This document shows, piece after piece, positions 1 to 58,309 of a stretch of 64,000 nt of DNA (the stretch's first letter is position 1; each line of letters begins with the position of its first letter). The stretch is from assembly GCF_006345805.1 (NCBI RefSeq), contig NC_043001.1, positions 64,294,001-64,358,000 of the forward strand, given 5' to 3'. A program made the translations under genes and the position numbers. The notes below the pieces were generated by a model that had not been told where the DNA came from, did no database searches, and worked only from the letters and a program-made list of their open reading frames with translations. Source of the DNA: Octopus sinensis (lineage: Eukaryota).

Positions 1-314
1 TACCCCCTTTACATCTCCTTATATCTCTTTATATCTTTATGCTCTACATTTTTATATTTTTCTATACTTACACTTTTTATACATTTTTTATCCATCGTCC
101 TGAATTCTCGCCCCTCCATCTTCACGTATATACATGTATTTATTTATTTACATTACTTCAACATCCATTTTTCCTCATCCTACATTGAGAGAAGAAAGAG
201 ATGGACGCTTCAATTCTATGCTGCTGCCGCATTATGTCGTACGCGAATGGGAGGATTTGCATCCCCAACCAAGAATTTTTGATGTAACACATGTCCTTGT
301 GGAAGCTGTTGTGC

Positions 315-392
315 GCGGCTGAAGAAGGCCACAGACATACATTATGCATTGTTATAAATCTGTCTAATAAAGGCCCGAAACATATGTACCGC
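315..392 (+). ncRNA. Minimal type I hammerhead ribozyme
   Basis: GCGG(315-318)-CTGAAGA(319-325)-A-GGCC...GGCC-C-GAAAC(377-381)-ATAT-GTA|CCGC(389-392). Stems I and II pair, inner ACAGA/TCTGT stem, palindromic short stem III; predicted cleavage after 388. Confidence 0.8.
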
Positions 393-428
393 TGAATCCT
401 TCGCATCATGTTTTTATTTTGATCAATT

Positions 429-454
429 TATATATATATATATATATATATATA
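429..454. repeat. (TA)n microsatellite
   Basis: Direct reading. Confidence 0.95.
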
Positions 455-619
455 CGTTTAAATATTTGTTGTGCAAGATTTTTTATGTGAAGTCGTGTGT
501 TGAAACAGATATTGTTATATTTCGGAATGGTCATTTTGCCAGTTTAGCCAATAAAAACACACGCACTATATATTTGCTTCAGTGTTATTTATTTTTTACA
601 TTAATCTTAATCTTATTTC

Positions 620-664
620 GGCCAGAGTTCTTTCGTCACACTCCTGTGACCGCATCAGTGGTCC
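620..664 (-). ncRNA. Hammerhead-like motif with variant core (CUGAUG-CG)
   Basis: Minus strand: GGACCA-CTGATGCG-GTCACA-GGAG-TGTGAC-GAAA-GAAC-TC|TGGCC. Perfect 6-bp stem II, stem I CCA/TGG, A9 position non-canonical. Confidence 0.6.
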
Positions 665-669
665 TTTGT

Positions 670-1233
670 TAATTTAACCTTTAAAGGTATTTTTTAATAT
701 GCTGGCCATTGATAAAATTTTTTTTCGAAAAAATGTTATCCTACATTAGATATAAATTTAATAGTGTTCACTTCCGGACTCTCCCACTCTGTGAGTGCCT
801 CAATTCAAATCGCACGTGTCTTGAATGGGCTGGAGTATTTCTATTTTGGATTTATTTGGGCTACTTAGTTGTGCTCGTGACTTAGTGTTTGCTTCTTCCA
901 TGGGTATGAGTAAGTATCTCATTTTCTTCTTTGCCACATGTATCACTGACGAAGGGAGGGTTCTTTTTGAACTAACCCTGAAATCGGTCCGATATGGTAA
1001 TAATGGAATTTTTTAGAGATTTCTGTTGACCTTTTTATCGAGTAGCGTGCGTACTAGGAAAAACATTATATGGTAAATGGACAATATGTCCAATTTTTCG
1101 GCATATTTGGCATTAAAAATTTTTTCGTTTGCCCTTATTTATAAGTTGTTTATAATTTAACCTTTAAAGGTATTTTTTAATATGCTGGCCATTGATAAAA
1201 TTTTTTTTTTTCGAAAAAATTTTATCCTACATA

Positions 1234-1240
<7 letters not shown>
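670..1240 (+). mobile_element. Non-coding ~483-nt unit with terminal direct repeat (PLE pseudo-LTR / retrozyme-like)
   Basis: ~85-bp direct repeat 670-754 / 1153-1240 (TAATTTAACCTTTAAAGGTATTTTTTAATATGCTGGCC...) enclosing an intact hammerhead. Confidence 0.65.
941..999 (+). ncRNA. Type I hammerhead ribozyme, intact core
   Basis: TATCA-CTGACGA(946-952)-AGGG..GGTTC-TTTTT-GAACT..CCCT-GAAA(980-983)-TCG-GTC-CGA-TA|TGGTA. All three stems pair; AUA cleavage triplet, cut after 994. Confidence 0.85.

Positions 1241-1280
<40 letters not shown>
1236..1280. repeat. (TA)n microsatellite
   Basis: Direct reading. Confidence 0.95.
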
Positions 1281-1281
<1 letters not shown>

Positions 1282-1289
1282 TAAGCAAT

Positions 1290-1775
1290 AAGGGTTTAGC
1301 AACGAGTTGCCTTACCACATACCGAATTTAGAAACAATGCGCTCTCTTATTTAAAATCTTTGTGCTGATGAAGAGAATGGTAGAATGAAGATGTAATTCT
1401 TGCATCTCCATATCGATCCAACTCACAAACGCGTCCACAAGTAATCAAATGCCGAGTGAATTTTTGTTATTTTTTCCTCTATGCCTACGTGAATTGTTTT
1501 TGAGTATACGTTGTCTGGGAGAGTCTTCTTATAGTGGAAGAAATAGCTAAGTTCTTTGGCTGCTATTTCTAAAAGCTCGGTATGTGGCAAAGCAAATATT
1601 TTTGCTGAACCCTAATTATAATTGTACTCATAATTATAAAATGTAATGTTTAAGTTTACCGTAAATGGTCCTTTTAACATGCTGAACACTACTTGGTGGA
1701 ATTATTAATTACTAATTAATTAATTAATTTTACCCTTTATTATCATTGATAATATAATTCTCTCCCCGATAATAA
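1290..1775 (+). mobile_element. Hammerhead-bearing non-coding repeat with inverted terminal segment (same family as 6344-6935)
   Basis: 1290-1334 is the inverted copy of 1566-1613; 1440-1745 aligns to the minus strand of 6344-6447 and 6710-6935. Confidence 0.6.
1360..1440 (+). ncRNA. Hammerhead ribozyme, probably inactivated (G12>C)
   Basis: TTGTG-CTGATGA(1365-1371)-AGAG...AGATGTAA/TTGCATCT...CTC-A-CAAACGCGTC|CACAA. GAAACGCGTC is the typical PLE hammerhead 3' half; here it reads CAAAC. Confidence 0.7.
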
Positions 1776-1942
1776 ACTACAGTTTTTTTTTTCTGTAGGA
1801 ATTTGTTGCTCAACAACACACATGGGTGGGTTAAGGAGAATAGAAAGCCTCATTCGTATGTTTTGAATTCGTTGGTACTGGATGTTGGATATAGTTTGTC
1901 TGATGTTACTTGAATCAGATGGGTATGTTCAATTCTTCGGCC

Positions 1943-2456
1943 TTTCTGTCTCTATCTATCGGCCTTTCTATCTCTACCTATCGGCCTTTCTGTCTCTTAA
2001 TTCCTAGCCCATGGCTTGTCGTGTCCCCCCTCTCTCTTATCACTATGTGCCTCTCTCTCTACCGACCGCCGCTCTGTCTGTGTCTATCCTCACTCTCTTT
2101 CGTCTCTACTTCCTACTTCCCCCCCTCCACAACTTCCTCCTCCCTACATAAACCAATGCACGCTGCTTGACCTTTATTTTTGACTTCGATACCCTGGCTG
2201 TAAACACGATCCTGAGGAGATGAGAAATCAGTTAAGATTCTTAAGTTTCCGACCTGCCATTTCTTTCATTGTATTTTTGCGTGTATTATCATCATAAGCC
2301 CTTATTATTTTCTTACTATTCTGCCTTCTCTTTAATTTGGAACATATTCTTTCACTCATGAAAATTTATCACACGTTATCTCAGTCTTCCGTCTCTATCT
2401 ATCAGTCTTTCTGTCTCTATCTATCGGCCTTTCTGTCTCTTAATTCCTAGCCCATG
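1943..2456 (+). repeat. ~443-nt unit with direct repeat (pseudo-LTR-like)
   Basis: TCGGCCTTTCTGTCTCTTAATTCCTAGCCCATG at 1981 and 2424; truncated CTGAGGA-stem motif at 2212-2250. Confidence 0.5.
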
Positions 2457-2459
2457 TTT

Positions 2460-5400
2460 GCCAGTTCGCGAGTTCGCCTGCCCTCTTACCCCTCCACCTG
2501 TACAGGAAGTCCCTATGTCGTCCTCCTTTGCTTGTCTCCCATGAACACCTAAAGGCCTTACGCCAACCCCACCTCTACTATATAAGGTAGTGATCATATA
2601 GTGCAAAACATGATAGTTTAGTATAAGCAGGTTGAACTTAAGATCATTGTTTGCTTATGAATTCTGCCAAATGCGAGTTTTCTTTTCAGGTACATGAAGC
2701 TACTGTCCACTGTCCCAGGGTCTCTAGGGCCCATACCTCCCACACCCTCAGGGTTAGCACTCTCAACGTCGGCACACTGAAAGGTAGGTCTGGTGAGATT
2801 GTTGAAATGCTTGAACGGAGATGTGTTGATATGTGCTGTATCCAAGAAGTAAGGTGGAGAGGAGGTTCTGCTAGGTTCCTTACAGACAAAGAACACAGGT
2901 ACAAGATTTTCTGGGCAGGGAACACTGACGGGGTTGGGGGTGTGGGTATACTTCTTGCGGAGAAATGGGTAGATAAAGTAATTGAGGTAGTCAGAGTATG
3001 CGACAGAATACTTAAGATTAGATTAGTGCTCCATCATGGGTTAGCAACGACTATCTCAGCCAGGGCTACCGATGGACAGAAAGACTGATTCTATGACACC
3101 CTCTTGCAGACTACTGCGTTGACGAATGACAGGGACCTTCTCTTTGTGGCTGGCGACTTCAATGGACATGTTGGACAACATACAGGGGGCTTCCATGGCA
3201 TACATGGAGGCTACGGTTTTGGCTCTTGCAATGAGGAGGGAACCAGGCTGCTGGAGTTCTGTGATGCAAATGATCTTATGGTTTGCAATACTAACTTCAG
3301 GAAACCTGCCAGCCACCTAGTCACCTACCGCTCTGGCAGACACACTAGTCAGATCGACTACATCCTCACCAGAAAAAGGGAAAGATGGCTGCTTATAAAT
3401 GCGAAAACCTTCCCAGGCGAAGAATGTACCCCACAACATAGACTAGTAGTTAGTGACTTCAGGATCAGGGCTAAATGGATGCCCAGAAGACGATCAGCAA
3501 GAAGGGTCTGGAGACTTAAAGATCCTGCAAATGGACAGAGATTTAGAGACATATTACTCGAAGCCTTTGACGAAATAGAAGGAGGTTCCTACAGGACAAC
3601 CTACAAAGGGCCACCAACCAGATCTGTGGATGGTGCAAAGTCCCCTCCCGACCCAAAATAACGTTGACAGGGCTATTAGACAAAAGAAACAGGCTTGGAA
3701 GGACGGTGGTAGCAGGGAAGTGTATCAAACTGCTAGGAGGCAGGTTTATTTAGCCAGAGGGGAAGCAGATAAGAAAAAAATTGCCAATGTTCTGCGCCGT
3801 GAGGACGAAAGACTTGAGGTATTCCGTGTTGCAAGACAGTGTGTGAGAGAGAATCGTGACGTGGTAGGTTAGAAATGTGTTCGCATGGATGATGGTTCTT
3901 TTGCACTGAATGAGGATGAAAAGAGAGAGGTTTGGAGACACCATTATGAAAGGCTGCTGAATAAGGAAAATGAATGGGATAAAGAGTCTGCTGAATATCG
4001 ACCCAACAGAGAGACCAGCTATCCGAGTTGACAGGTCGTTAGTAGTTAAGGCAATTAGAAGCATGAAGACAGGGAAAGCCCCAGGCCCATCAGGAATTAC
4101 TGCAGAGATGCTTAAAATATCTGGTAGTGTCAGTTATAGCCTAGTCACCCATATAGTTAACCAGGTGATACACGAAGGAGTCATACCCAATGACTGGTGT
4201 AGCAGCATAATAGTCAACTGCTACAAAGGTAACGGTGACGCTTTAGATACAAATAATTACAGAGGTATCAAGCTGTTGGATCAGGTAATGAAGGTTATGG
4301 AAAGGGTCATAGCCCAACTGATTAGGGAGAGAGTCAGCTTGGATGAGATGCAGTTTGGTTTCATGCTAGGGAAAAGCACCACTGATGCCATATTTCTGGT
4401 AAGACAGCTGCAGGAGAAATACCTAGCCAAAGATAAGCCCCTGTGCCTGGCTTTCATTGACATGGAGAAAGCCTTTGATAGGGTCCCCCAATCCCTTATC
4501 TGGTGGTCAATGAGGAAACTAGGGATTGATGAATGGTTAGTGAGAGCTGTGCAAACCATGTATAGGGACGCTGTAAGTAAGGTGAGGGTTGGCAACGAGT
4601 ACACTGAAGAATTCAGGGTAGTTGTAGGGGTCCACCAAGGTTCAGTCCTCAGTCCCCTCCTATTTATCATAGTCCTCCGGGCAATAATGGAAGAATTCAA
4701 GACAGGATGCCCCTGGGAGCTCCTATATGCTGATGACCTTGCTCTAATTGCTGAGTCACTATCAGGACTAGAGGCAAAGTTTCAAGTGTAGAAACAAGGA
4801 CTAGAATCGAAGGGCCTTAGTGTGAACCTCAATAAAACCAAAGTCCTAATATGTAGGAAGGCAGGCAAATCACAAACGCCTTCAGGTAGATGGCCCTGCT
4901 CGATCTGTAGAAAAGGCATAGGTAGAAACTCTATAAGATGCACCAAGTGTAAGCTATGGACACATAAGAGGTGCAGCAATGTCAAAGGAAGGCTAACTAG
5001 GAAGATAGTTTTTGTATGTGGCAGATGCTCAGGAGCAATAAACACTGAAAATGTGCAGAGACCAACTTCCGCCACATTCCAGGGAGAAAAACTTGAAATA
5101 GTTGATAGCTTCTGTTACCTAGGTGACCAAGTCAGTAGCTGGGGCGGATGTGCTGAAAGTGTAACTGCTAGAATAAGAATAGCCTGGGCAAAGTTCAGAG
5201 AGCTCTTACCTCTGTTGGTGTCAAAAGGCCTCTCGCTCAGAGTAAAAGGCAGACTGTATGACGCATGTGTATGAACAGCCATGCTACATGGCAGTGAAAC
5301 ATGGGCCGTGACTGCTGAGGATATGCATAAGCTCACAAGAAATGAAGCCAGTATGCTCCGATGGATGTGTAATGTCAGTGTTCATACTCGACAGAGTGTA

Positions 5401-6210
5401 AGTACCTTGAGAGAAACGTTGGACTTAAGAAGCATCAGTTGTGGTGTGCAAGAGAGACGTTTGCGCTGGTATGGTGATGTAGCGAGAATGGATGAAGATA
5501 GTTGTGTGAAAAAGTGCCACACCCTAGCGGTTGAGGGAACCTGTGGAAGAGGTAGACCCAGGAAAACCTGGGACGAGGTGGTGAAGCACAACCTTCGAAC
5601 TTTAGGTCTCACCGAGGAAATAACTAGAGACCGAGACCTTTGGAGGTATGCTGTGCATGAGAGGACCCAGCGGGACTAGTGAGACCATAACCCGTGGCCT
5701 CTACCTGGGATGTAGCTGGTCCACTTATGCATACCTTTCCTTCTTGGGACACAAAACTCTACTTGTGAAGACCTGTTGAGGCAAGTGAAAATCGAAATCG
5801 ATCAACATCAATGGAAATTGTAGTTGTGATACCATTGGCATGTAAGAGAACCAACTGAACTTGGCCGTTGCCAGCGCCGCCCTGACTGGCCTCCGTGCTG
5901 GTGGCACGTAAAATGCACCATCCGATTGTAGCTGTTGCCAGCCTCGTCTCGCCTCCGAGCCAGTGGCACATAAAGCGCACCATCTGATCGTGGCCGTTTG
6001 CCAGCTTCGTCTGGCACCTGTGCTGGTGGCATGTAAAAAGCACCCACTACACTCACAGAGTGGTTGGCGTTAGGAAGGGCATCCAGCTGTAGAAACTCTG
6101 CCAGATCAGACTGGGCCTGGTGCAGCCTTCTGGCTTCCCAGATCCCAGTTGAACCGTCCAACCCATGCTAGCATGGAAAGCGGATGTTAAACGATGATGA
6201 TGATGATGAT
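2460..6210 (+). mobile_element. Near full-length RTE-clade LINE (APE endonuclease, RT with PHD insert), disrupted
   Basis: TLNVGTLKG, CIQEVRW, GDFNGHVG, QIDY (APE); NYRGIKLL, QFGF, HQGSVLSP, LYADD (RT); GRGRPRKTW; 3'UTR tandem repeats and (GAT)n tail at 6193-6210. Confidence 0.95.
2657..5679 (+). pseudogene. RTE polyprotein, broken by frameshifts and stops
   Basis: ORF pieces 2651-3088, 3104-3661, 3630-3872, 3970-4791, 4822-5274, 5281-5679 are collinear. Confidence 0.9.
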
Positions 6211-6343
6211 ATATATATATACACACACACACATATATATATATGGAAATAGAACTTCTAAAATTGAGGGCTCAGACGAATGAAGAGATCAACCAAGAAA
6301 TTAACAAAATGACTCAAGGCCTCGACTTAGAGATCTCCAAACT

Positions 6344-6935
6344 GGAGTTAAAAATTCCTTTTCTACTACTATAAGAATCTCCCAGACAGTAACACATTTT
6401 TTTACGTAGGCAAAGAAAAAAATAATGAATTAACACGACTTCGATTAGCTATAGACGCGCTTTGAGTTTAAAGTATTTAATTTACTTACTTCCTGTCATC
6501 AGTGTAGCATTTCCATTATAAAATTTGAAAGTGCTAGGGTTAAATACACACACGATCAAGCAATATTGTGCAACAGATATCCGACCAACACTTCCAAAAT
6601 TTACACAGCCGAATATGAATACATATTTATCCCTTGTACCCACGTGTATGTTACGAGCAGTACCGCAGAAAACTGTAATATTCAATCATGGAGTAAATTA
6701 TAATTAAAAATGAATAATAAAAGGGTAAAATTAATTAATTAATTAATCAATCAATTAATTAATAATTTAACCAAGTAGATTGGTACATTAAAATAGCCTT
6801 CATAGGTAAAATCTATAATTAGGTGAAGCTAATTGCTTCACCGCATACCAAATTTAGAAATAGGAGTTAAAAATTCCTTTTCTCCTACCGTAAGAATCTC
6901 CCAGACAGTAACACACTTTTTTACATAGGCAAAGA
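6344..6935 (-). mobile_element. Non-coding ~519-nt unit with 73-bp direct repeat, containing a hammerhead
   Basis: Direct repeat 6344-6416 / 6863-6935 (GGAGTTAAAAATTCCTTTTCT...GAATCTCCCAGACAGTAACACA). Confidence 0.65.
6448..6508 (-). ncRNA. Degenerate hammerhead ribozyme
   Basis: Minus: GCTACA-CTGATGA-CAG...CTC-AAAG-CGCGTC|TATAGC. Stem I pairs 5/6; GAAA box mutated. Confidence 0.6.
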
Positions 6936-6971
6936 GATATATATACACACATATATAAAATATATATATAT

Positions 6972-7606
6972 AATAAATAATATTAGGGTAATAAAAATTA
7001 TAGAAATTATTATTACCAAAAAAATAGTCAATAGACAATATATTATTCACATAATAATGTGGCCATGGTCAAGGAACTAAATTAGATGGTAAACATTTTT
7101 AATTTTCAATCCTTTCGAGAATTTATCCATAATTAGTGGTTTGAGTTTTCTACTGCTCTTTCTAGCACAAGGCTTTCCTATTTGGAAGCCTCTTAATGTG
7201 TTCTAATGTCCACAATATTTTTATGTGAATAATATATAGTCTATTAACTATTTTTTTGTGCTAGGCCACTGGTAATAATAATTTCGATAATTCTTATTAC
7301 CCTAATATTATTTATGTTTAAATATTTTTTGCTAGATTTGTTCAAAATTTTTACCGGCATCCTCTCTGTCGCCAGAAATAAACTGCATCGATGCGGTTGT
7401 TTTGAAAAATTAGGATAATTTTTTTACTGGAATGAGTTAGAAACCATGGTCTAGGAACTAAATTAGATGCTAAACGTTTTCAATTTTCAATCCTTTTGAG
7501 AATTTATCCATAATTAGTGGTTTGAGTTTTCTACTGCTCTTTCTAGCATAAGGTTTTCCTATTTGGAAGCCTCTTAATGTGTTCTAATGTACATGATATT
7601 TTTATG
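6972..7606. repeat. Tandem plus inverted repeat unit (381-nt period)
   Basis: Direct repeat 7063-7225 / 7444-7606; ~6972-7062 is the inverted copy of ~7209-7315. Confidence 0.7.
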
Positions 7607-13364: not shown

Positions 13365-13937
13365 AAGACAATATTCACCCTCACTTATAGACAAGGGAAT
13401 TAAGCATGCCAAGAAATTAGACATAAAAACACTAAGGAAAACAAAGCATAACACCACACCTCATCTCAAAACATCACTGTTTATATCAACCCACAACCTT
13501 AGAAACAGTGAGGCATACAAAACTATTGTGCAAAATCTCCTAGAGATCCAAAAATGAACATCCTGAAAATGCATAAACTCATCAAATGCAAAAAGCAACA
13601 CAAATCGCTAAAGAGACTTCTAACAAATGCGAAGCTTTACAAAACAATCACGAAGCCAACGGTTAAAAAATGCAGATGCCCAAACTGTGGAACATGCCCC
13701 AACCTACTTGAAAGCTCAGATTTTCTTTTCAAACAAGGAGAGTGGTTCACAAATAAAACCAATTTCACTTGTGCCTCTGAGAACCTAATTTATGTAATAA
13801 CCTGCTCAGGTTGTGGACAACACTATATTGGACAGACAAGTATGATTTTGAGACCGAGAACTATTCTACATAAAGAGCAGATCCAGTTCCCACAATACAG
13901 ACAAATTCCTCTAGGTGAACACATTGAGAAATTCTAA
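13365..13937 (+). pseudogene. Penelope-like element linker zinc motif plus GIY-YIG endonuclease fragment
   Basis: KCRCPNCGTC...FTCASENLIYVITCSGCGQHYIGQT...LHKEQI. Confidence 0.85.
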
Positions 13938-16143: not shown

Positions 16144-16420
16144 GTCCCGGATAGGAGATACGTGACATCACTGGCCAGCCATATCTGGCAATTACGAGAT
16201 GAGGAGATTCCATATTTGATCGCATGAAAAATACTCGAGAATCTAGGCCCCTACCTAAACGGGACAAAACGGTGCAAATTATGCATTGCTGAGTGCACAA
16301 GGATCCTTTTGGACCACTGCCCTTGCTTTTTTGTCTGAAGATGTTAATAGAGGTATGAGATACCTAAAAAATTGTCATTCCACAGGATCCATCTTAAGCC
16401 GAAGTGTTGCTCATATACTT
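16144..16420 (+). mobile_element. PLE GIY-YIG C-terminal remnant and 3' end
   Basis: TSLASHIWQLRDEEIPYLIA*KILENLGPYLNGTKRCKLCIAE; followed by CTGAAGA...CGAAG hammerhead-like remnant. Confidence 0.7.
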
Positions 16421-23141: not shown

Positions 23142-24810
23142 GACGTCGTAGGAGAGAAATCTGTCCGCATGGATGACTGTTCACTTGCACTAAACGAGGC
23201 TGCAAAGAGAGAGGTTTGGAGACGCCACTATGAAAGGTTGCTCAATAAAGAGAATGAATGGGAGAAAGAGAGTCTGCCGAATATCGACCCAACAGAGGGA
23301 CTAGCTATCGATTTGACAGTACCTTGGTAGATAAAGCAATCAAGAGTATGAAGGCAGGGAAAGCCATCCCCCCCACCGGCCCATCAGGAATCACTGCAGA
23401 AATGCTCAAAATATCTGGCAGTGTTGGCTATAGCCTAGTTACCCAGGTGATACATGGAGGAGTCATACCCAATGACTGGTGTAGCAGCACCATAGTCAAC
23501 TGCCACAAAGGTAAAGGTGATGCTTTAGATACAAATAATTACAGAGGGATCAAGTAATGAAGGTCACGGAGAGGGTCATAGCCCAACTAATTAGGGAGAG
23601 AGTCAGTTAAATGAGATGCAGTTTGGGTTTGTGCCAGGGAAAAGCAGCACTGATGCTATATTTCTGGTAAGACAGCTACAGGAGAAATACCTAGCCAAAG
23701 ATAAACCTTTGTACCTGGCTTTTGTTGACATGGAGAAAGCCTTTTGTTGACATGGCAGTGAAACATGGGCTGTGATTGCTGAGGATATGCGTAAGCTCGC
23801 AAGAAATGAAGCCAGTATGCTCCGATGGATGTGTAATGTCAGTGTTCATACTCGACAGAGTGTAAGTACCTTGAGATAAATGTTGGACCTAAGAAGCATC
23901 AGTTGTGGTGTGCAAGAGAGACGATTGTGCTGGAATGGTCGTGTGGTGGGAATTGATGAGGATAGCTGTGTGAAAAAGTGCCACACCCTAGTGGTTGAGG
24001 GAACCTGTGGAAGAGGTAGACCCAGGAAAACCTGGGATGAGGTGGTGAAGTACGACCTTCAAACATTAGGCCTCACCGAGACAATGACTAGTGACTGAGA
24101 CCTTTGGAAATATGTTGTGCGTGAGAAGACCCGGCAAGACAAGTGAGACCATAACCTGTGGCCTTTACCAGGAGTGTAGCCAGCCCACTTACGCATACCT
24201 TTCCTTTGGGCACAAAACTCTGCTTGCAAAGACCTGTTGAGGCAAGTGAAATCGAAATCGAACCAAATTCAACTAGCACCCATGTCAACCTTCCTTCACT
24301 GGACACTAAACTCTGCTTGGGGCAAGTGAAATCGAAATTGAACCAAATTCGATGACTGGCACCTGTGCCAGTGGAGTGCTAACAGCTCTATCCAAGTGGG
24401 ATCACTGCCAGAGCAGCTGTCTGGCTTCCGTGCCAGTAGCATGTAAAAAGCACCATTTGAGCATGATTGTTACCTGTGTCGTCCTGCTGGCACTTGTGCC
24501 AGTGGCATGTGAACAAAGCATTTGAGCGAGGTCATTGCCAGTGCCGCTGGACTGACTCCTGTGCAGGTGGCACATAAAACACACCATTTGTGCGTGGCCG
24601 TTGCCAGTACTGCCAGACTGGCCCTCGTGCTGGTGGTACGTAAAAGCACCCACTACGCTCTCGGAGTGGTTGGCGTTAGGAAGGGCATCCAGCTGTAGAA
24701 ACTGCCAGATCAGATTGGAGCCTGGTGCAGCCATCTGGTTCGCTAGTCCTCAGTCAAATCGTCCAACCCATGCTAGCATGGAAAGCAGACTTTAAATGAT
24801 GATGATGATG
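23142..24810 (+). mobile_element. 5'-truncated RTE LINE with internal deletion
   Basis: RT N-part 23258-23745 joined to C-terminus at duplicated TTTTGTTGACATGG; (GAT)n tail at ~24797-24810. Confidence 0.92.
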
Positions 24811-28172: not shown

Positions 28173-28703
28173 ATCATCATCATAATTTAATGTCCGTTTT
28201 CCATGTTGGATGGTTTGACTGAGGGGCTGGCAAGCCAGTAGGCTTTGCCAGGCTCCAATCTGATTTGGCAAGGTTTCTACAGCTGGATGCCCTTCCTAAC
28301 GCCAATCAGAGTTAGTGGGTGCTTTTTAAGTGCCACCAGCACGGGCGCCAGTCAGGCAGCACTGGCATTGATCACATTCGGATGGTGCTATTTATGTGCC
28401 ACTGGCACAGGAGCCAGTCGGGCGGAGACTGGCATTGACCACATTTGGATGGTGCTTTTTATGTGCTACTGGCATGGGGTGCCAGTCAGGCAGCACTGGC
28501 AATGACCTACGCTTGAATGGTGCTTATTATGTGCCAGTCAGGTGGTACTGGCATTGGCCACAACTATAATTTCCATTTTGATTTCGATCTTAATTTGCTT
28601 TTGATTTTTGATTTTACTAGACTCAGTAGGTTTTCTCAAGTGTAGCATATCACCCTGTGATTCAAGAGAACTTTTAAAACGGGCTGGCTATGCGACACTG
28701 GTA
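28173..28703 (-). mobile_element. RTE 3'UTR fragment
   Basis: CAGCTGGATGCCCTTCCTAACGCC motif, tandem units, (CAT)n tail. Confidence 0.85.
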
Positions 28704-30149: not shown

Positions 30150-33100
30150 TTGGAAAGTTAGGTTGCAAAAAATGAGGAAATATGAGAGGAGGACAAGAGA
30201 ACAAGAACGTGATAAAGAAATAAGATTGCAGAGAAAGAAGGAAAATTACAGAAATAAAAGAGTACATGAAAATAAAAAAGACAAATACGATTGCAAAAGA
30301 GAGAAAAAGATAGAATAGAAAACAAGAAAGTGAAAGCGACTAAAAAGGAGAAAGCTTTTCAGAGAAAACCAGCTAAATAAGTATAGACAATTTCAATGGC
30401 AAGGTGTAACATTTAATTATGATCCTAATCGTAATTATGCATCTGAAAAATTTGTCTTCCTGGGCTCTATGTGCGAAATATGTGGAAAGTGTGGTGCTAG
30501 GAAGTGGGACAAGAAATCATTAGGTATGTGTTCTAAAGGTTAAGTCCATTTACAAATAATTGAGCCTCCAGAACTTATAAAACATGCTCTTTTGGATATC
30601 ACTTCAGAATCAAAACACTTTCTTAGAAATATTTGAGCATACAATTGTACTTTTCAAATGACATCATTTGGGCAAAAATTATTAGGGAAAGTGGGTTTAT
30701 GCCGACTTTTAAAGTGCAAAGACAAATTTATCACAGAATTGGCTTTCTTAAGCCTTTACAGAATAAAGATCCACAATTTATTCAAATATATTTTATAGGT
30801 GACATTCAAAAAGAAGCACAGTGTCGCAGCGAGAATTGTTCAGGTACAAGATTAGAACTTATTTTTAAGCTGCCAGAAATGCTTCACGAAAAGAATTCTT
30901 ATGTGAGAAGCTTTCAGTATGCTTTAGAATATACTTCAACAGTGGACTTTCAAATTATCATCGATGCCAACAAAAGACCAATTGGAGAACATGTCCATTG
31001 ATTCAATGTTTCTGAATGTAATGAAGTGGCTAAATTATTATGGTTGGAGAACACATAGTAAACGAGATAGTGTTTTGAAATATTGTGACAATACTATTGT
31101 CATGATATTTCATTCATGTTCATAAACGAAACTCATCATTCATATGATGCTTTACAATATCCTTTGCTTTTTGCTAATGGAGAAGATGGATAGCACTTTG
31201 GTATACCACAAATTGGAGGAATCACTTCCAAAAGAACTGTATCCTGTATGGATTATTATGTTCATCATTTGATGATTTGAAATAATTCGTTTAATCATCT
31301 TCACTATTGCCAAGATCTTTTTCACCAGTATGTTGTTGATATGTATACCAAAACAGTTGGAGAGGTTGTGCTACATAAAAATGCACCAAAAGATCTACGT
31401 TCAGAATTGTGCACTTACAAGATGGCATTAACAATGATATTGCTGGGACAGAGCTTGGACAACTTTGTATTCTCCCAACCAGTTTTACAGGAAGTCCAAG
31501 ATATACGAACGAGAGGACACAGGATGCCATGACTTATGTGCATAATTATGGACGTCCTGATCTTTTCATCATTTTCACTTGCAATCTCAAATGGAACAAA
31601 ATCCAAACTGAACTTTTTCCAGGACAGTTATACATTGACAGACATAACCTAATTGCAAGAGTTTTTCATCTCAACATTTCGAAATAGATGGATTTCATAA
31701 CCAAGTTTTACATATTTCAACCAGTATGTTGCTACATGTATACCACTGAATGGCAGAAAAGAGGCCTACCTCACACACATATATTAATCTAGCTTTTCCA
31801 GAAAATTCAAACTGATGAGATTGATTCTATGATCTCAGAAGAAATTCCAAACTCCACAAAAGACAAAGAACTTTATGAAATTGTAAAATCGAACATGGCT
31901 CATGGCCCATGTGTTAACCTCAACTTAACTGCACCTTGCATGAAAGACAAGAAGTGTATGAAATATTATCCTAAAATTTTCATTAAAGGAGCACAAATGG
32001 GTAATTCTATAAAATCAGTTAAGTACATTTGTAAATATGTTGATAAGGGTTCTGATGCTGCAATGTTCACCTTTCAACAACAGACATTTCAAGATGAAGT
32101 GACACACTTCCAAATGGGGCAGTATATTTGCAGCAGTGAGGCTTTTTGGAGAATATTTGGCTTTCCTATTCATGAATGATATCCTCCAGTAAAACAACTC
32201 TCTGTTCATTTAGAGAATGGGCAAAGATATATATACCTACAGAAACTGCTGCTCAGCAATCCCTAGCTCCAAGAGAAACTACATTAACAGCATTTTTCAA
32301 ACTTTGCCAGAAAGACTCGCTAAAACCCTTTTGTACTATCAATTACCATTATATTATACATGGAACAACAAACAATGGAATCACAGAAAAAGAGGTTGAT
32401 GCTTATCCTGATATCTGATTTGACAGTGTTCTGGGAAGAGTTTATACTGTGCATCTAACTCAGCAGGAATGTTTTTACTTACGTTTGCTTCTCCATGAAA
32501 TTCGTGGTGCCACATCTTTTATCGACCTTCGAACAGTTGGTTATGTTTTTGCTTTGAATAGAGAAGCAGCTTTTAGGTTAGGTTTGTTACAGGATGATAG
32601 TCATTGGATGGCAGCTATGTGAGAGGCTTCTGTGTCTTGCAGAGGAGGCAATTTAAGAACATTGCCATTCTCCTTAAATACTGTGATTTAGGGGATCCAG
32701 GATCAATATGGATAAGATACAATTATCTTGTGGAAGATTACGAGTACCAGATTCAATTGCAATGTACTGGCACAAAAATAGAATACAGTGACAAAATCTA
32801 CAATGCCACATTAATTGCCATTGAAGACAAAGTTGTTTCTATGAAAGAGAATGAATAGCATGAGTATGGACTTCCTCATACCAATTGTTCTGAATTTGAT
32901 AGTTCAACAACATATTAAATGAAACTTCCTGCGACATGGAAGACCTCTCAAGATATGTTAGTGAAAGTGAACTGAAATTGTTGCTTGAACAAAAAGTATT
33001 CTACAATACTATACTAGAAAAGGTTTTTGATCAAATGGGAGGGCTTTTTTCTTGATGCTCCTGCAGGAATGGGCAAAATATTTGTCACTAAGCTTTTACT

Positions 33101-34465
33101 TGCCAAAATGCAACAAGAGAAAAAAATAGCTTTGGCTGTTACTTCTTCAGGTATAGCTGCTACTTTACTCCCAGGAGGAAGAACAGCTCACTCTACTTTC
33201 AAATTGCCCTTGAATATAGCTAGCATTAGGACACTAGTTTGTAATTTTATGAAAACATCTGGGATGGAACAGATACTAAAGGAGTGTCATCTCATTATTT
33301 GGGACGAATGTACAATGGCCAACAAAAAATCTTTGGAAGCTTTGAATTGAAGCTTGCAAGGTTTAAGAAATTCTAAATTATTAATTGGTGGAGTTACCAC
33401 TGTACTCTCAGGAAATTTCGTCAGACTTTGCCTGTAATTCCAAAGGGCACTAAGGCAGATAAGTTAACAGCATACTTGAAGTCCTCCTATTTGTGGAGAC
33501 ATGTAACAAAAATGAGCCTAAGAACATGAGCGCCATTCTTTCGGGCGGTGTTTTGACTGAATAACTTGCTCAAAATTTATGGAAACTTGGAGAAGGTAGG
33601 GTACCCCAAGATGAAAATAATTGTTTAAATATATCTCTAATTAGTATATCAGTTTCATTTCTTGATGAACTAAGTGTTTTTCCAAATTTTCAAGACCGCC
33701 AACAAAACCATAAGTACTTACGTGAAGAGCAATATTTGCGCCATAACATATCAATCAACACCATAAAAAATAAGTTATTGGACTGCATTTCAGGAAATAC
33801 ACTGACCTACAAATCTACAGATTCAGTTCCAGATCCTGCAGAGGCTGTCAGTTGTCTTGTTGAATTCTTAAATTCTTTGGAACCTTCTGGGCTTTCACCA
33901 CACCGGCTTCTCATGTTACTACAGAACCTTGATCAGCGTCGGTTGTGTAATGTTACTAGACTGGTAGTTAAAAAAATTAATACATCATATTATTCAGGCT
34001 ACTATTTTGACTGTGTGTTTTATAGGAGAAGAGGCACTTATACTGAGAATACCTTTGAGTCCATCTGACACAGAAATATCTTTTGTATTCAAAAGATTAC
34101 AATTTCCAGTGAAACTCAGCTTTGCTATGTCTATAAATAAATCACTGGAACAAGTGTTATCTGTTGCTGGGTTACAACTCGAAGAAAATTATTTTTCTCT
34201 TGGGCAACTGTATGTAGCATGTACAAGAGTTGAAAGTCCATGCAATCTTTTTACATATGCTCCTTCTGGAAAAACATGTAACATTGTTTATAAGGAAGTT
34301 CTAGATTTAGAATAAATAGTAAATAAGATGAACAAATAACACAATTAAGGGGTGAAAGAACATGGGCTGAAAGTAGGGATCTTAGAAATGAAATGTAAAA
34401 ATGTATTTAGCATGGCAAAACTGTCATATGGCAGTTGGCTCCTGAAACACCAGGCAACCCTGACG
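30150..34465 (+). mobile_element. Degraded autonomous Helitron (Rep/HUH-Y2 plus PIF1 helicase)
   Basis: ILPTSFTGSPRY, YGRPDLFIIFTC, EWQKRGLPHTHILI, SVKYICKYVDKG; helicase LDAPAGMGK, IWDECTM, RLQFPVKLSFAMSINKS, GQLYVACTRV; many stops and frameshifts. Confidence 0.95.
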
Positions 34466-46631: not shown

Positions 46632-47557
46632 CAGGGTGTCCATAAAGTCTCTTTACAATTTTAAAATTTTATTACAAAGGTTGACAAGATATCTTAACCA
46701 GATTTGTTTTATTGTAATAATTGTTTATTAAAGTTTTTTTAACTGTTATTTAATAGACCTCAATATGGGCACCATTAATTATGTGAAGCACATCAAGATG
46801 GTACTTGATTTCTTGCTATGTTTGCTGTAGATAGCCTCATCAACAGTGGCAATGACATGACGAATCCTTTGCTTCAAGTCAGCAATGTCCCAAATCTTTG
46901 TTTGATACACAATATCTTTTACATAACCCCATAAAAAGAAGTCTAAGGGAGTGATATCTGGCGAACATGGTGGCCTTGGAATTGGCTCACCCCTTCCAAT
47001 CCATCGGTCTGTAAATGTTTGATTCAGGAACTGACGAACATGCCGTCCCCAATGTGGTGGTGCACCATCCTGCTGGAAAATGATGGTTGGTTGTAAATCA
47101 GTCAGTTGTGGTGCCACATATTCGGTCAGAAGGTCGAGGTAAACATCTGCAGTAATTGTTGCCTCATTGAAGAAAAATGGACCAATTGTTCGATTGCACG
47201 TGATTCCACACCACACATTCACTCTCTCCATAAATTTCTTGTGCCATGCACTAATTGAAGGACACGATGGTGGATCTCTTCCATACTTAGTTCTGTAGTT
47301 TCATTGAGTCTGAACATCCAATTTTGTCTCAATAAACCAGGATACACATTGTTCCTTTTCATGAGGAGTAGCCATTTTATAGGGGTTCAGTGAATCAGTT
47401 CCCTTCCATCAACAGAGTATCTGAAACACAAAAAATTTAATATCAATAAAAACTTTAATAAACAGTTATTAAAATAAAACAAATCTGGTTAAAATATCTC
47501 ATCAACTGCCTTTGTAATAATTTTTTTAAATTGTAAAGAGACTTTATGGATACCCTG
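46632..47557 (-). mobile_element. Tc1/mariner DD41D (rosa-type) transposon, internally deleted
   Basis: ~105-bp TIRs CAGGGTGTCCATAAAGTCTCTTTACAA, TA TSD; FQQDGAPPH-x-SPDITPLDFFLWG with 41 residues between D and D. Confidence 0.9.
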
Positions 47558-50855: not shown

Positions 50856-53333
50856 CTCTTTGTGTACTATTTCCATTGATATTTATTTCGATGCTCATGT
50901 ACTTGACTCAACAGGTCTCCTCAAGCACTGCGGGGTCTGGGAAGCCAGGGGCTGCACCAGGCTCCAGTCTGATCTGGCAGTGTTTCTACAGCTGGATGCC
51001 CTTCCTAATGCCAACCACTCCGCGAGTGTAGTGGGTGCTTTTTACGTGCCACCTGCACAGGTGCCAGTGGGGTCTGGCATCGGCCACGATCGGTTGGTGC
51101 TTTTAACGTGCCACCGACACGGAAGCCAGCCAAGGCAGCGCTGGCATCAGCCACGTTCGGATGGTGCTTTTTATGTGCCTCTGGCACAGAAGCCAGTCGA
51201 GGTGGCGCTGGCATCGGCCACGTTCGGATGGTGCTTTTTATGTGCCACCGGCACAGAAGCCAGTCGGGGCGGCGCTGGTAACGGCCACGTTCGGATGGTG
51301 CTTTTTATGTGCCACCGGCACAGGTATCACAACTACTATTTCCATTGATATTTGTTTCAATGTTCATGTACATGCACTTGACTCAACAGGTCTCCTCAAG
51401 CACAGCGAGATGTTCTGGGATCCAAGGTACTTTGAATGGGCAGGGGCTATGCGGAACTGGTGCCGGAAGCATCCCGGGTCTTTGCAGTCACAGCACATCT
51501 CCAAAGATCTCGGTCCTTCGCCATTGCCTCAGTGAGGCCCAACGCTCTGAGGTCATGCTTGACTACCTCATCCCATGTCTTCCTGGGTCTACCTCTCCCC
51601 CTGATTCCTTCAACTGTTTGAGAGCGGCACTTCTTCACACATCTCTCCTCATCCATCCGCAGTACATGACCATACCATCGCAAGCGTCGCTCTTGCACAC
51701 CACATCTGATGCTTCTTATGTCTAGCATTTCTCTCAGGGTGCTTACACTCTGTCTTGCATTCACACTGACATTACACATCCAGCGGATCATGCTAGCTTC
51801 ATTTCTTTCAAGTCTACGCATGTCCTCTGCAGTCACGGCCCATGTTTCACTACCGTGAAGCATGGCAGTTCGCACACATGCATCATACAATCTACCTTTC
51901 ACTCTGAGTGAGAGACCCTTTGTTGCCAGTAGGGGTAGTAGCTTTCTAAACTTTGCCCAGGCTATTCGTATTCTAGTGTTGACACTCTCTGAGCATCCAC
52001 CTCCACTACTAACTTGGTCACCCAGGTAGCGGAAACTATCAACTACTTCTAGTTTCTCCCCCTGGAGTGTGATGGAATCTGTTTTCTGAGTATTTGTGGT
52101 GTCTATTGTCCCTGTGCATCTGCCACACATGAAAGCTATCTTAGTTATTTCTATCTAGAGCATCACCCTTACCCTTGTAGCAGTTGACTATGGTGCTGCT
52201 ACTACCTGGTTTACAATACGGGTGACTAGGCCATAGCCCACATAACCAGCTGTTTTAAGCATCTCAGCAGTGATACCTGATGGGCCGGGGGCTTTACCTG
52301 GTTTCATACCCTTAATTGCCTTAACTACAAGGGAGCTGTCTATTTGGATAGCTGGTCCCTCTACTGGGTCAACATTTGGCAGGCTCTCCTCCTCCCATTC
52401 ATTCTCCACATTCAGCAGTCTTTCATAATGGCTTCTCCAAGCCTCTTTCTTTTCACCAACATTAAAAGCAAGTGCCCCATCATCCATGCGGACACATTTC
52501 TCTTCTGTAACATCACTATTTTCTCTCACACACTGTCTAGCAATCCGAAATACCTCAGTTCTTTGGTCCTCACGTCGCTGGACATTGGCAAACTTCTTCT
52601 TTTCTGCTATATCTTTGGCTATGTATACCTGCCGCCCAGCCTCCTTTTTGGCTACTTGGTACGGTTCCCTGCTACCCCCATCCCTCCAGACTCTCCAGGC
52701 CTGTTTCTTTGCACTAATGGCTTTGTCTACTGCACTATTCCACCACCACGTAACTCTAGGTCTGGAAGGGACTTTGCACCATCCACAGACTTGGTCTGTG
52801 GCACCCAGCAAGCTGTCCTGTAGGAATTTCCAGCTACCTTCTATGTCCGACGTCTGTAGCTCTACCTCCCTCTCATCAAATTTCTTGATGAGGATGTCCC
52901 TAAATCTCTGACCATGTGAAGGGTTCTTTAGCTTCCAAATCCTTCTTTTCTGGATTGGTCTGTTTCTTGGAGTCCTTCTGGCCTCAAGCCTAAAGTCACT
53001 AATGATTAGCCTATGATGAGGGATACACTCTTCACCCGGGAGGGTCTTTGTATTTAAGAGCGACCCTGCATCCCGCTGTCTGGTGGGGATGAAGTCTATT
53101 TGGCTAGCGGAGTCTCCTGACTGATAAGTTATAAGGTGGCAGTCAGGCTTCCTGAAGTTAGTGTTGCAGATTAAAAGGTTACATGCATCACAGAATTCCA
53201 GTAGTCTAGTTCCCTCATCATTTCTGGTGCCAATACCATGGCCACCGTGTACCCCAGTGAAGATACCCGATTCCTGCCCAACATGCCCATTAAAGTCTCC
53301 ACCCACAAAGATGAGGTCCTTGCTACTAGTCTT
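50856..53333 (-). mobile_element. RTE LINE with RT core deleted
   Basis: ORFs 52188-53306 (APE-linker) and 51447-52130 (C-terminus); four 3'UTR units; tail replaced by a copy of 51335-51402. Confidence 0.93.
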
Positions 53334-53659: not shown

Positions 53660-54892
53660 CAGGGGTTGGACAAAATAATGAAAGCACCTAGCATCATAGC
53701 ATCTTCATTTTGAAATATCTATCAAAAGCTTGTTTATTTTTATGTTTTTGCATTTATTATTAGTGTTGCTTAATATGTTTTGCTAAAATTACTGTTTCTT
53801 TTCAGATATCATCAGAAAAAGGTAATTAAAATTCATTAAAATGACAGATCTATCGGACTTTCAAAGAGGTCAAATTGTTGGTGTTCATATGGCATGTGCT
53901 AGCATAATGAAAACAGCTAAAATGTTTGGTGTATCAAGAAGTACTTTCTCGAAAGTACCTTTGAGAAAGAGGGTAAAACCACCTTGTCAAAACAAAAACT
54001 CTGGAAGAAAACCAAAAACTTTCAGATAGGGACCATCAGACTCTTACGCAAATTGTTAGAAAGGATCACAAAAATACAGCACCCAAATTGCTGCAGAGCT
54101 TAATGACCACCTTGAGAACCCAGTTTCCACAAAAACTGTTTGCCAGGAGCTGCACAAAGCTGGATTTCACGGGAGGGCTGCAGTCAAAAACAAATGTTGC
54201 AAAGCATTTAGAGAGGAATGAAAAACCTACAGACTTGGTCCCAAGAGCAATGGAAGAATGTTGTTTTCTCGGATGAGTCATGCTTTACCTTATTTCCGAC
54301 CATCAGCCAAGTATACATATGGAGACAGCCAAAAGAAGCATTTGACCTAGACTGCCTTCTTCCAACATGAAGGAGGATCTGTGATGATGGGGTGGGGTTT
54401 TTTTGTGGGGGCTATATCTTGGAAATATGCCAGCCCAGTGGTTTCCCTTCATGGCAGAATTAATAGTGAAGAGTATTTAAGCATTTTATCTTATCAAATT
54501 CATCCTATGGTTGTAGAACTGTTTCAGGAGGGAAACACAATCTTTCAGGATGATAATGCACCAATTCATACAGCTAAAATTGTTACTGAATGGCACGAGG
54601 AACATTCTAGTGAAGTTGAACATCTTATCTGGCCACCACAGTCCCCAGATCTCAATATTATTGAGCATTTATGGTGCATTTTAGAAAAACAAGTAAGGAG
54701 TCGCTATCCTCCACCATCATCACTACAAGAACTGGAGACTGTTTTAGCTGAAGAATGGACAAAAATTCCTTTGGAAATAATTCAAACTTTGTAGAATTCA
54801 AGCTGTAATTACTGCCAAAGGCAGTCCTACCCTATATTAAAATAAATTTGTTTGAAATTTTAAGGTATTTCCATTATTTTGTCCAACCCCTC
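53660..54892 (+). mobile_element. Tc1-family transposon with DD36E spacing, frameshifted
   Basis: TA|CAGGGGTTGGACAAAATAATG...CATTATTTTGTCCAACCCCTC|TA; MTDLSDFQRGQIVG HTH; FSDES; FQDDNAP-x-SPDLNIIE with 36 residues between D and E. Confidence 0.92.
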
Positions 54893-57277
54893 TATGTAAA
54901 ACAAGAAATCAAAAGGTAGAGACTTTCAGATGATCAGTTTTTAAGTATAAATATATAGATATGTATAGTAATAGATCCAACTTCACAGAGTACAAATGAT
55001 GAAGAAAATTGAAGAGGTGGAAGAACGGTATTATAAGTCCAGCTGTTTCTGGGGACTCAGAGAGCCATAGCAACGTTGGTAGATGTAGTTCACCAGAATA
55101 TGCAGCCATAATTGGATAAGCGAAGCCTCTGTCATCTGGGTAGAGAAGATCTTAATGCAGAGCAGTTCAAAGATGGAATGATTAAATTTGGAGAGCTAGC
55201 TGAGGGGGGGGGGGTGTAGGAAGGTGGAGGATTACGAGGGAGGGGGTATTAAGACAGGGAATGGTGAGAGGAGAATAGATAGTTCAAGAAGTGTGAGGAT
55301 ACTAAGGGAGGTGGAGAGTTGGGAAATAAATAGGTGCAGGATTGATAATATTTGAATGGTAAGCAGTTGTGTTGGGTTTGTGTCTAGGTGTCAAAGTTTA
55401 GGGATAATAGCTATAGATTTATTGGAAGTTAAGGTAAGGAGAATAGGAATGGCAATTATTTGAAGGAGGTAAAGTGTCTAGTTCAATGGTAGAGGGAGAT
55501 TACTAAGGTATAAGAGAAAATAGAGGGAGGTGGACAGTGGGAGGGTTAGGTGGTGGCCAAGATAGCAGTGGTTAGTAGAATAATGAATGTAGGTTGGTAC
55601 TGGAGGGGAAGTTCTGAGGTATGCACAGGTGTATGAAATTGAATGGAGGGAGGGAGAGAGAGGATGATAGGTTAATCCAGTTGAGTGGGGTAGTATTAAG
55701 TGCTTTTGGTTGAAGAGGAGAAATGCGAGAATGGAAAGTGTACCACTTGTGAGGTTGGGAAGGCTATGAGGGAGGTGGATGTGATAGGTTAGAGGATTTG
55801 CAAAGGTAACAATGAGAGGGAATAGCTCAATAAGAAGGGTGGTATTACTTGAGATTGTAAGTTGCTAGGTTGACCTTGTACCTTAAGGTTAATTTTAATT
55901 AAGGATAATTATAGTTATAGGATTATATAGATTTAATAAGATGGACAAATAATGAGTAGAACCTGTGTTTACATGTGAGAATCTATTAAGTAATGAGGGG
56001 TTGTGGTGGCGGAGGATGGTTAGTAATTGCCTCACGATGAACTAGGATAGGGTATGGGGAACATTTTGTGATTTGAGGTTGTATATATAAATTGCTGAGG
56101 AGGTAGATAATTTAGAATTTTAATTGGAGAAATAATTCATGTGTGCACAGTAGCAACACTTAAAATCAACAATGCCATCAATATAGACCCTTATTTGATG
56201 GGAGCCTGGTGTTATAACACAGCATTTGTAGACTACATTTTCACACAGACAGAAACTTCTAAGAGGGTGGAATTGAGATACTCAACAATTGCAAGTTTTC
56301 CTACCTGCTCTGCAGTTAGAACTTACTGCTAGGGAGGTCAGGTTCCTATGGTCCATTATTAGTAAAGAACTGGAAGTATATCCAGTATCAGGAGGGGATC
56401 TAGGACTGTCCACCGTACAGATATTTTGCCACAAGGACCTTTGTAGTAAAGCATAAGAAGAGAAGGATAAAAAAATAAAAATAACGAAGGTCATACACTT
56501 TACTTAAACAGTTAAGCTCCTTTGATTTTGATTGTAACCTCTGACAATGCTTAGTATGCGCTTATAAACATCTTTGTATTTTTTCTTGGGTCGGTTTCTC
56601 CCCTTGCTGCATTGAATAACCTTCTTTTTAGAAAGAGATTCTTCATTTCTCAAGATATTGATAAGTTTCCATAAATTTGGATGAGTATTTATAACAGATG
56701 CATGTAGCACATTATGGAGACCTTCTACTCCATTGTTAGTGTTAGTCAGCTGATTTAGGGTTCTTTCATACATATTCCAAAGACTGATAGGAAAAGTAGG
56801 AGGAACTCTACATCTACAAACTCCCCTGCCTCCTCTCTCCCCACCAATGTAATGCATTTCAAAATATGCCACAAGTTCTTGTGGCTGGTCAGTTTCATCC
56901 ACAAGCTCTATAAATGCATTGATGGTGTTGGGAGGCAGGATGAATGCAAGTGCCATAAAGCACTTTACTTTTGTGTTAAAACTACAATCAGTTTGATATC
57001 ATACCTTAAGCCCAATATCTGTCATCTTTCTGTAAACAATTTTACAGAAGTGAAAAAAAAAAAAAAAGCCTGTTACATTTGCAGATGGAAATTTGTCAGA
57101 AAAACTTTGAAAACTAGCTTGTTCAAACCAATCATTAGATTTTCAGGTCTTAGGGACCTGAGCAAATCTTTAACCTTTTGAAAATACTCATTGTATGTGT
57201 CAAGAGTCTTATTTAGAAGGAAACCATAAATTTGTGGGATGCATGCATGTCCTATGTTGTCATGTAGAGTATATTAA

Positions 57278-57500
57278 CCCTTTTGTTACCATATTTCTGT
57301 TAAGATGCTCTGTGTTTCTTTCAATTGATTTTAAATATAACAAAGAATTTAGTAAAATAACTTAGTTATCATTAAGCTAGTGTTAGGAACATAAATTGTG
57401 ACTAGGGTTTGGTGGAAGACTTTAATTCAAAACTGATGAAAACAAAGACATTTATACTACAGTGCCAGAGGCGGTTTTGGCCGGGTTGGTATCAAAAGGG
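57278..57500. mobile_element. piggyBac-like MITE
   Basis: TTAA|CCCTTTTGTTACC...GGTATCAAAAGGG|TTAA. Confidence 0.9.
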
Positions 57501-58309
57501 TTAACTGATTATAAATTTCAAGACAAACCTTAAATGTTCTATTGCATGCCCAATTCTTAGGTATTTCTAGATTGTGCAACCCTGCATTCATACCAAAAAA
57601 ATCAACATTCTGTTTTTGATTCCATCCCACTATTGTAGAATTAAAATCTTTCTCTGTTTTGGAGACATGTAAATTCTTCAGGAATTACATAGCTAATTCT
57701 TGATTTAGGTTTAGGAGGGACCTTTTCTTCCTTTTGTCTCCATCTTCTAATGTTTCTTGATAAATTTGAAGTTGATGGCATAAGTGAGCATCCTTCATCC
57801 TCTAATTCCCTACATGTAGCACCAATCAAAGATCTTGAAGCTAACTGGGATTTAAATGCCTTTTCTTTCATAATTGCTATTGCTTCTTGCATTTTTGGTT
57901 GGCTAGGATTAGATGGATGTGTATGCTCACTTACAACTTTACAAATACAAATCACTTCACTATTCAGTTTTGTATAAACTCTTGCTTTACAGTTTGTATT
58001 AACACACTTCCAATAGACCTTGCCTCCATATTTTCTTTCTTGCCTATAAATAAAGTTAGAATCATCTATGAGCTTATCGCAACCACTGACAATAGTGTAC
58101 AGCATCGTAAGGGTTTAATAGTGTACAGCATCGTAAGGGTTTAAGGTTCAACTAAAAGAAAAAGAATGTAAATGGTTGCAGCAACCTCTCAAAACAAGCT
58201 TTTTGCTTTGAATTTTCAAGGTTAGATTGTTATTTTTAAATAAATGTAAAACAACCTTTCTACTTTTAAATTCTCATTTCAGTAATTAATGATGCAGTTT
58301 CAAATTTAA

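Follow-up and report, generated by a model that had tools for sequence, protein, structure and literature searches.

The first 7.6 kb of the window, which is the whole 64,000-nucleotide stretch of DNA analyzed here, is made up of two Penelope-like element (PLE) 3′ stubs, one LINE whose 5′ end is repeated, and four short families that are non-coding and carry hammerhead motifs. The short families are probably non-LTR retrozymes, copied from circular or uncut RNA by a PLE reverse transcriptase (RT) acting in trans. A preliminary description had treated the cluster as one replicon system. We found instead that it consists of six insertions into TA-rich DNA, which are unrelated or only loosely related. 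They lie close together because all of the families enter TA-rich DNA and because older PLE copies tend to receive new PLE insertions within or next to them (PMC6765202).

Hammerhead motifs and repeat units

The 64 kb were searched with a type I hammerhead descriptor, using an exact core or one core mismatch, and 60 block shuffles served as the control. The exact core resulted in a single match (946-994, plus strand), against a shuffle background with a mean of 0.23 per window and 0 in the first 7.6 kb. When one mismatch in the core was allowed, the folds at 658-625 and 6502-6454 on the minus strand were also returned, at a background of 4.1 per shuffled window. The motifs at 315 and 1360 (plus strand) are absent from the descriptor output; they were read by eye and confirmed on family alignments. 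An Rfam scan (E ≤ 1) resulted in microsatellite matches only, and no hammerhead or other ribozyme. All five motifs of the preliminary description are present, but the one at 941 on the plus strand is the sole fully canonical hammerhead motif in the window. This motif (motif 3, 941-999, predicted cut after 994) has an intact core, three helices, and a near-palindromic helix III strand. In motif 4 (1360-1440, plus strand), G12 is changed to C at 1426, and motif 5 (6448-6508, minus strand) is also damaged. The damage is confined to the window copies, and GAAA is kept in most family copies. In the family alignments, the core and helices I and III are intact in 21/33 rows for motif 3, 14/23 for motif 4, and 20/28 for motif 5.

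The four partial tandem units described earlier do exist as two-copy direct repeats, with spacings of 483 (670-725/1153-1208), 443 (1944-2013/2387-2456), 519 (6339-6424/6858-6943), and 381 nt (7063-7225/7444-7606). The last two spacings are not true periods; the families have units of 537-546 and 471 nt, respectively. The units spaced at 483, 519, and 381 nt behave as independent, as had been claimed, while the 443-nt unit belongs to a LINE. The 483-nt family occupies 670-1246 (plus strand) as 1.2 units, with its 3′ end running into (TA)n. In the 2.72-Gb animal genome that contains the window, two motifs of this family have 461 and 1079 exact matches, and controls have 0. The 589-nt unit around motif 4 is a fifth unit, absent from the preliminary description. 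It lies at 1287-1937 (plus strand), as an inverted piece (1287-1334) followed by about one unit (1341-1937). The ~540-nt family, with the 519-nt period in its window copy (6339-6943, minus strand), is 74% alike to the 589-nt family over 237 nt. The 471-nt family (6957-7606, plus strand) consists of an inverted piece (6957-7058) and a direct stretch (7063-7606). A 90-nt deletion in this copy gave the 381-nt spacing and removed the 5′ half of the hammerhead; the 3′ half remains at 7440-7451. The hammerhead is otherwise intact in copies of this family, which has 83 exact motif matches.

A type I hammerhead motif was thus found in each of the four units, those of motif 4, motif 5, and the 471-nt family being damaged in the window. 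The units are 471-589 nt long, with a GC content of 31-34% and no LTR structure. The earlier statement that they encode no convincing protein is upheld: their longest ATG ORFs are 49-63 aa, with 63 aa the longest on any circularized unit. Circular folds of the units are more stable than those of shuffled sequences (z −2.4 to −5.1; one copy each, 40 shuffles). Helix II of the 471-nt family is preserved by a paired change, with eight G-C rows, 12 A-U rows (three of them duplicates), and none mixed, which is probably one event. Palindromic or near-palindromic helix III strands occur in motifs 1, 3, 4, and the 471-nt family, with self-pairing energies of −7 to −14 kcal/mol; the strand of motif 2 does not self-pair (+1.4 kcal/mol). 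For the motif 3 monomer, an inactive fold is favored by an estimated 4.9 kcal/mol. A palindromic helix III together with an inactive monomer fold fits the dimer model of PLE hammerheads (PMC4209133). Head-to-tail dimers, in which two or more motifs follow each other, were found in the 483-nt (L193, L205, L208, L022), 471-nt (L139, L135), ~540-nt (L035, L041), and 589-nt (L069) families, and multimers or arrays above about two units were not seen among the sampled copies.

Copies of the short families and their template

Each family has hundreds to thousands of loci, of which we sampled 15-30. Rows were sampled by motif for the 483-nt (n = 30), 471-nt (n = 30), and 589-nt (n = 17) families, of which 6, 5, and 2, respectively, were set aside as second views or duplicates; the ~540-nt family was sampled only by best match (25). 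The copies are dispersed over many contigs, and each has its own 5′ end. In the motif-sampled loci, the 3′ ends of each family are concentrated at two or three points and mostly run into (TA)n. These points are mostly 160 or ~249 nt past the cut site, followed by (TA)n, in the 483-nt family, and 168 or ~258 nt past it in the 471-nt family. An inverted copy at the 5′ end is present in 17/24 (483), 14/25 (471), and 5/15 (589) rows once duplicates are removed. Copies range from 0.3 to 2.06 units, the longest also being the longest direct run. None of the 64 motif-sampled rows of these three families has a joined PLE ORF, the upstream sequence being the unit continuing round, and none was found among the 25 best matches of the ~540-nt family. 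Same-strand motif pairs are 454-498 nt apart, which is one unit, and never 2-6 kb, among the first 100 of 461 matches of the 483-nt family and all 83 matches of the 471-nt family, save for one 1180-nt duplication. No 2-6 kb pair occurs among the 17 loci of the 589-nt family. PLEs characteristically form partial tandems, carry inverted copies at the 5′ end, and target (TA)n (Craig et al., 2021, bioRxiv 10.1101/2021.04.23.441226). The claim that the short families are non-coding, hammerhead-bearing, independent units stands, with PLE-type insertion marks added to it. The 483, 471, ~540, and 589 families are probably non-autonomous PLE-type elements.

The preliminary description had also proposed a circular RNA template. 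The sampling motifs lie downstream of the predicted cut site, so the site does not bias the sample. Of 42 segments that come within 30 nt of the site, 38 passed it and one stopped at it. In the 483-nt family (26 distinct segments from 30 rows), seven segments end well short and all 19 that reach the first site pass it by at least 57 nt. In the 471-nt family (28 distinct segments from 30 rows), five end well short, three stopped 12-16 nt short, one stopped at the site, and 19 passed. In neither set of segments do 5′ ends accumulate at the cut site. The main template is therefore not a monomer that was cleaved and left unligated. The read-through supports the proposal and fits a circular or uncut template without proving a circle, as from DNA alone a circle is inseparable from uncut multimers or template jumps. 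We lean slightly toward a template that is truly circular. At the second cut site, four segments of the 483-nt family end 16 nt short, 4 nt short, 13 nt beyond, and far beyond; stops near this site could reflect linear templates that start near the hammerhead. Six duplicated loci (L006-L012) share an inverted segment of the 483-nt unit, which ends on its 3′ side just 2 nt away from the predicted cut site (position 1091 in L006), beside non-TA DNA. This end could be due to priming at a cleaved RNA end.

Subfamily variants are common to both repeats of a locus in 12, 15, 18, and 11 cases. No alignment column splits upstream from downstream repeats in sets of 19, 11, and 6 loci, and a 3-locus set gave three noisy columns. 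Repeats of the 483-nt family are about as distant within a locus (0.078) as between loci (0.085), and a repeat's own partner is the nearest in 0/19 cases; thus the repeat comparison has little power in this family. Repeats within a single locus differ by 5-8%, which indicates that the insertions are not recent. Contigs of three presumed RNA runs and of one run of unknown kind were compared; one-unit-back joints occur in presumed RNA runs and, for the 483-nt unit, also in the run of unknown kind, and such joints are what genomic tandems would give.

It is possible, though we think it rather unlikely, that the short units are PLE derivatives that are never circular and arise by linear read-through of dimeric loci or by RT template jumps, with the hammerhead as a recognition or processing signal. 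Some long copies do end within ~25 nt of the second cut site, the longest direct run is limited to 2.06 units, the motif 3 monomer is predicted to fold inactively, and PLE hammerheads are reported to cleave poorly in vitro (PMC4209133). However, linear templates alone would shorten in each round, and the variants common to both repeats suggest that length is regained. Just one of the 42 segments stops at the cut site, and circles have been shown for mussel, coral, and axolotl retrozymes (PMC7229834).

The retrozyme reading starts from short units (483, 471, ~540, and 589 nt) with one hammerhead motif each, no ORF, and dispersed copies. A locus with two motifs would be transcribed, the motifs would cleave as a dimer via the palindromic helix III, and the monomer would be ligated into a circle. 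Judging from the copy ends, a GIY-YIG nick in (TA)n may prime reverse transcription at a few internal TA-like sites in the RNA. Copying would pass the cut site and stop at scattered points to leave 0.3-2.1 units, which is the pattern seen in the copies, and a second, inverted copy would often be added from the other end of the target.

Protein-coding PLEs, the LINE, and other elements

The first insertion in the window (1-428, plus strand) is the 3′ end of a Hydra-type PLE from a young, protein-coding family, identified by its family matches and by an ORF in other loci. The window copy is 5′-truncated, ~1.6 kb plus an inverted piece, lies mostly to the left of the window, and has no ORF. The 40 best matches to 130-428 are 98-100% identical. 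In 4/9 loci examined, an ORF with RT plus a GIY-YIG domain at its C-terminus lies upstream of this end. Pfam gave no match on the Hydra-type ORF; Atlas neighbors of the element have RVT_1/GIY-YIG in part of the members. By motif reading, the element ending at 428 has the features of the Hydra clade: RT with C-terminal GIY-YIG, DKT, CxCX5C, a hammerhead, and a (TA)n target. The DKT and CxCX5C linker motifs, read in L172, L175, and L176, match the definition of Hydra PLEs given by Craig et al. The 3′ non-coding region is ~1.9 kb, longer than the total length of <3 kb cited for the clade would suggest. The family (window 1-428; L172, L174, L175, L176) is very young, and L175 has a long open RT-GIY-YIG frame. 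It is a possible source of the enzyme for the (TA)n-targeted insertions. Its hammerhead, motif 1 (type I, 315-392, plus strand, predicted cut after 388), has a full core, a palindromic helix III, and an A·C pair at the base of helix II that is fixed in the family, and it is nearly invariant across 30 aligned rows.

The second insertion (455-670, minus strand) is the 3′ stub of a Neptune-like PLE, also from a protein-coding family. Seven of 25 loci continue into RT/GIY-YIG sequence with a CX4CxxC linker. The GIY-YIG domain and linker were read in L113 and L108 (Pfam GIY-YIG E 5e-4, below the cut-off), and the core RT was not recovered. For the element ending at 455, we tentatively use the clade label Neptune/Nematis-type, based on the CX2-5CxxC linker definition. 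Motif 2 (622-661, minus strand, predicted cut after 625) has a non-canonical C at core position 9, as do most family copies; CUGANGA is present in 2/30 rows. The C at position 9 is a trait of this PLE family, and together with a poorly self-pairing helix III it makes motif 2 a putative hammerhead variant. Four of the 25 stub copies (window 670; L110, L118, L126) have an end point in common, ~11 nt upstream of the hammerhead core, which is possibly a transcription start or a strong stop.

Motifs 1 and 2 both join PLE ORFs in other copies and are PLE 3′ ends. Full-length copies attached to a PLE ORF, set beforehand as the finding that would count against independent replicons, exist for these two of the five motifs. 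By extension, all five could be plain pseudo-LTR stubs from protein-coding PLEs, the long copies having been missed in sampling, and PLE protein remnants do lie ≤1.5 kb from some copies of the short units. We consider this improbable for the short families. A period of 471-589 nt is incompatible with the stub of a multi-kb element, copies continue upstream of the motif into their own tail, and the nearby remnants inspected are set apart by other DNA or (TA)n or are differently oriented, except in L212. That the units are satellite-like repeats, born from a PLE end and spread at the DNA level by unequal crossing-over or segmental duplication, in line with the local amplification proposed by Li et al. 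(bioRxiv 10.64898/2026.07.22.740005), is highly improbable: there are a few segmental duplicates (L006-L012, L133/L134), but dispersed copies with their own 5′ ends, 3′ ends fixed in (TA)n, and inverted halves largely refute it, and arrays of more than about two units were not seen.

The 443-nt partial repeat (1937-2456, plus strand) precedes a broken LINE with an AP endonuclease, RT, and a 3′ region (2457-6209, plus strand), identified by its ORFs and Pfam matches (RVT_1, E 5e-25; Exo_endo_phos_2, E 2e-5). From the appearance of its ORFs, we take the LINE to be of the RTE type. The 443-nt unit continues into the LINE in 14/20 loci (including two redundant pairs) and does not in six; in some loci it is tandem. 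Judging by these junctions, we interpret it as a module from the 5′ untranslated part of the LINE that is present in repeated form. The type I descriptor scan found no hammerhead motif in the unit, which, lacking a motif and joined to a LINE, does not qualify as a retrozyme. A CUGAGGA in the unit is present in L152, absent in L155, and forms no motif, and we rejected it as a hammerhead. The LINE is unrelated to the hammerheads, and the Rfam scan (E ≤ 1) found no HDV-like ribozyme in its 5′ region. Tandem repeats of 62-67 nt are found in the 3′ regions of LINE copies and in related short repeats (5889-6044, 24512-24645, 28318-28536, 51034-51323, 61550-61747).

Elsewhere in the window, fragments at 30627-34315 resemble a Helitron Rep/helicase ORF, and ORF pieces at 46779-47300 and 53977-54794 resemble Tc1/mariner-type transposases. 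A FLYWCH zinc finger ORF with a neighboring ORF (56504-58114, minus strand; Pfam E 2e-8) is probably the remnant of a Mutator-like transposon. Further hammerhead motifs of other families are found in DNA flanking sampled loci (L212 2886 and 3618; L213 2679 and 4285; L214 718); the genome holds many more hammerhead families.

Candidate helpers and comparison with known elements

PLE remnants had been reported in the window as plausible helpers. We confirmed a Neptune-like GIY-YIG domain (13545-13928, plus strand; tblastn 57% identity, E 2e-44), the C-terminus of a Hydra-type endonuclease (16165-16308, plus strand; tblastn E 5e-5), and a Hydra-type RT (59344-59883, minus strand; tblastn 31% identity, E 6e-16), with a weak match at 56.1-56.3 kb (E 0.09). 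All of the confirmed remnants are decayed PLE fragments. With six PLE protein pieces searched against the sampled loci, no autonomous partner with the hammerhead and tail of a short unit was found. For seven loci where a short unit has PLE remnants close by, more flanking sequence was included, and in these no PLE ORF leads into the hammerhead of the unit.

At window 670, L072, and L212, a short unit directly abuts a different PLE family, with no (TA)n separating the two. In the window, the 429-1280 block consists of (TA)n, the Neptune-like stub and the 483-nt unit joined 5′ to 5′, and (TA)n again. In L212 (4205-4592), an inverted piece of the 483-nt unit is fused, again with no (TA)n, to a second Hydra-type PLE at its endonuclease end; this PLE has its own hammerhead, and the fusion arose possibly as a result of a template switch. 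These junctions could be mixed insertions. As the end of the 455-670 stub is common to 4/25 loci, the stub may predate a 483-nt unit added at its edge. It is conceivable, yet doubtful, that the families are circular RNA parasites and that priming by the PLE enzyme takes place at TA-like sites inside the circle, copying continues across the ligated junction, and two different RNAs can be joined in a single event. If so, the mixed insertions (the 429-1280 block, L072, and L212) would name the helpers that are still absent from the retrozyme model. No description of mixed PLE insertions was found in the literature searched.

Animal non-LTR retrozymes have already been proposed to be non-autonomous PLE derivatives that move via circular RNA (PMC7229834; bioRxiv 10.64898/2026.07.22.740005). 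They are also known from a mollusc, the mussel, with units of 350-390 bp (Cervera and de la Pena, 2020, PMC7229834). The circular template is likewise in print (PMC4209133, PMC7229834), and the model of a circular template copied for more than a unit was stated by Cervera and de la Pena (2014, PMC4209133). In Xenopus, 8/9 dimers did not cleave in vitro (Li, Clavereau and Pollet, 2026, bioRxiv 10.64898/2026.07.22.740005). For the giant squid genome, 235 hammerhead-1 loci are counted and families are not described (PMC6962438). Our searches of the literature on octopus and cephalopod hammerheads, retrozymes, and Penelope elements, which covered largely open-access papers, found no account of the families described here.

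Like animal non-LTR retrozymes, as these sources outline them, the short families have short, low-GC, non-coding units with one type I hammerhead each, are dispersed as monomers and dimers, and co-occur with PLEs. Their unit size of 471-589 nt is within the 51-972 bp of Li et al. and above the 170-400 nt of PMC7229834. Unlike non-LTR retrozymes, they have PLE-type motifs with an extra base before helix II. The long tandem arrays described as typical of published retrozymes were not seen here, and these families are known from DNA alone. EN+ PLEs of the Hydra and Neptune clades carry pseudo-LTR hammerheads, and motif 1 and, by its tentative clade label, motif 2 are such hammerheads. With EN+ PLEs the short families have in common a (TA)n target, partial tandem copies, and an inverted copy at the 5′ end, but they have no ORF, and their duplicated 3′ overhang is 80-250 nt with several priming points, compared to one 30-40 bp tail in published accounts. 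They also resemble MRC1 of Chlamys (Craig et al., 2021), as non-coding PLE derivatives that have pLTRs and are arranged head to tail. The non-autonomous PLEs of Chlamys are described as mostly without hammerheads and with 3′ ends that resemble those of autonomous partners, whereas no partner was found here.

By the features that can be compared at the sequence level, the short families appear to belong to the animal non-LTR retrozymes and are likely parasites copied by PLEs. Until now, retrozymes have been linked to PLEs by their co-occurrence and by pseudo-LTR similarity. With dispersed copies that have clear ends, priming sites, cut-site read-through, and helper identity can be tested directly. 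The window adds four families of retrozyme type and two of PLEs from a further animal genome, and indicates no new kind of system.
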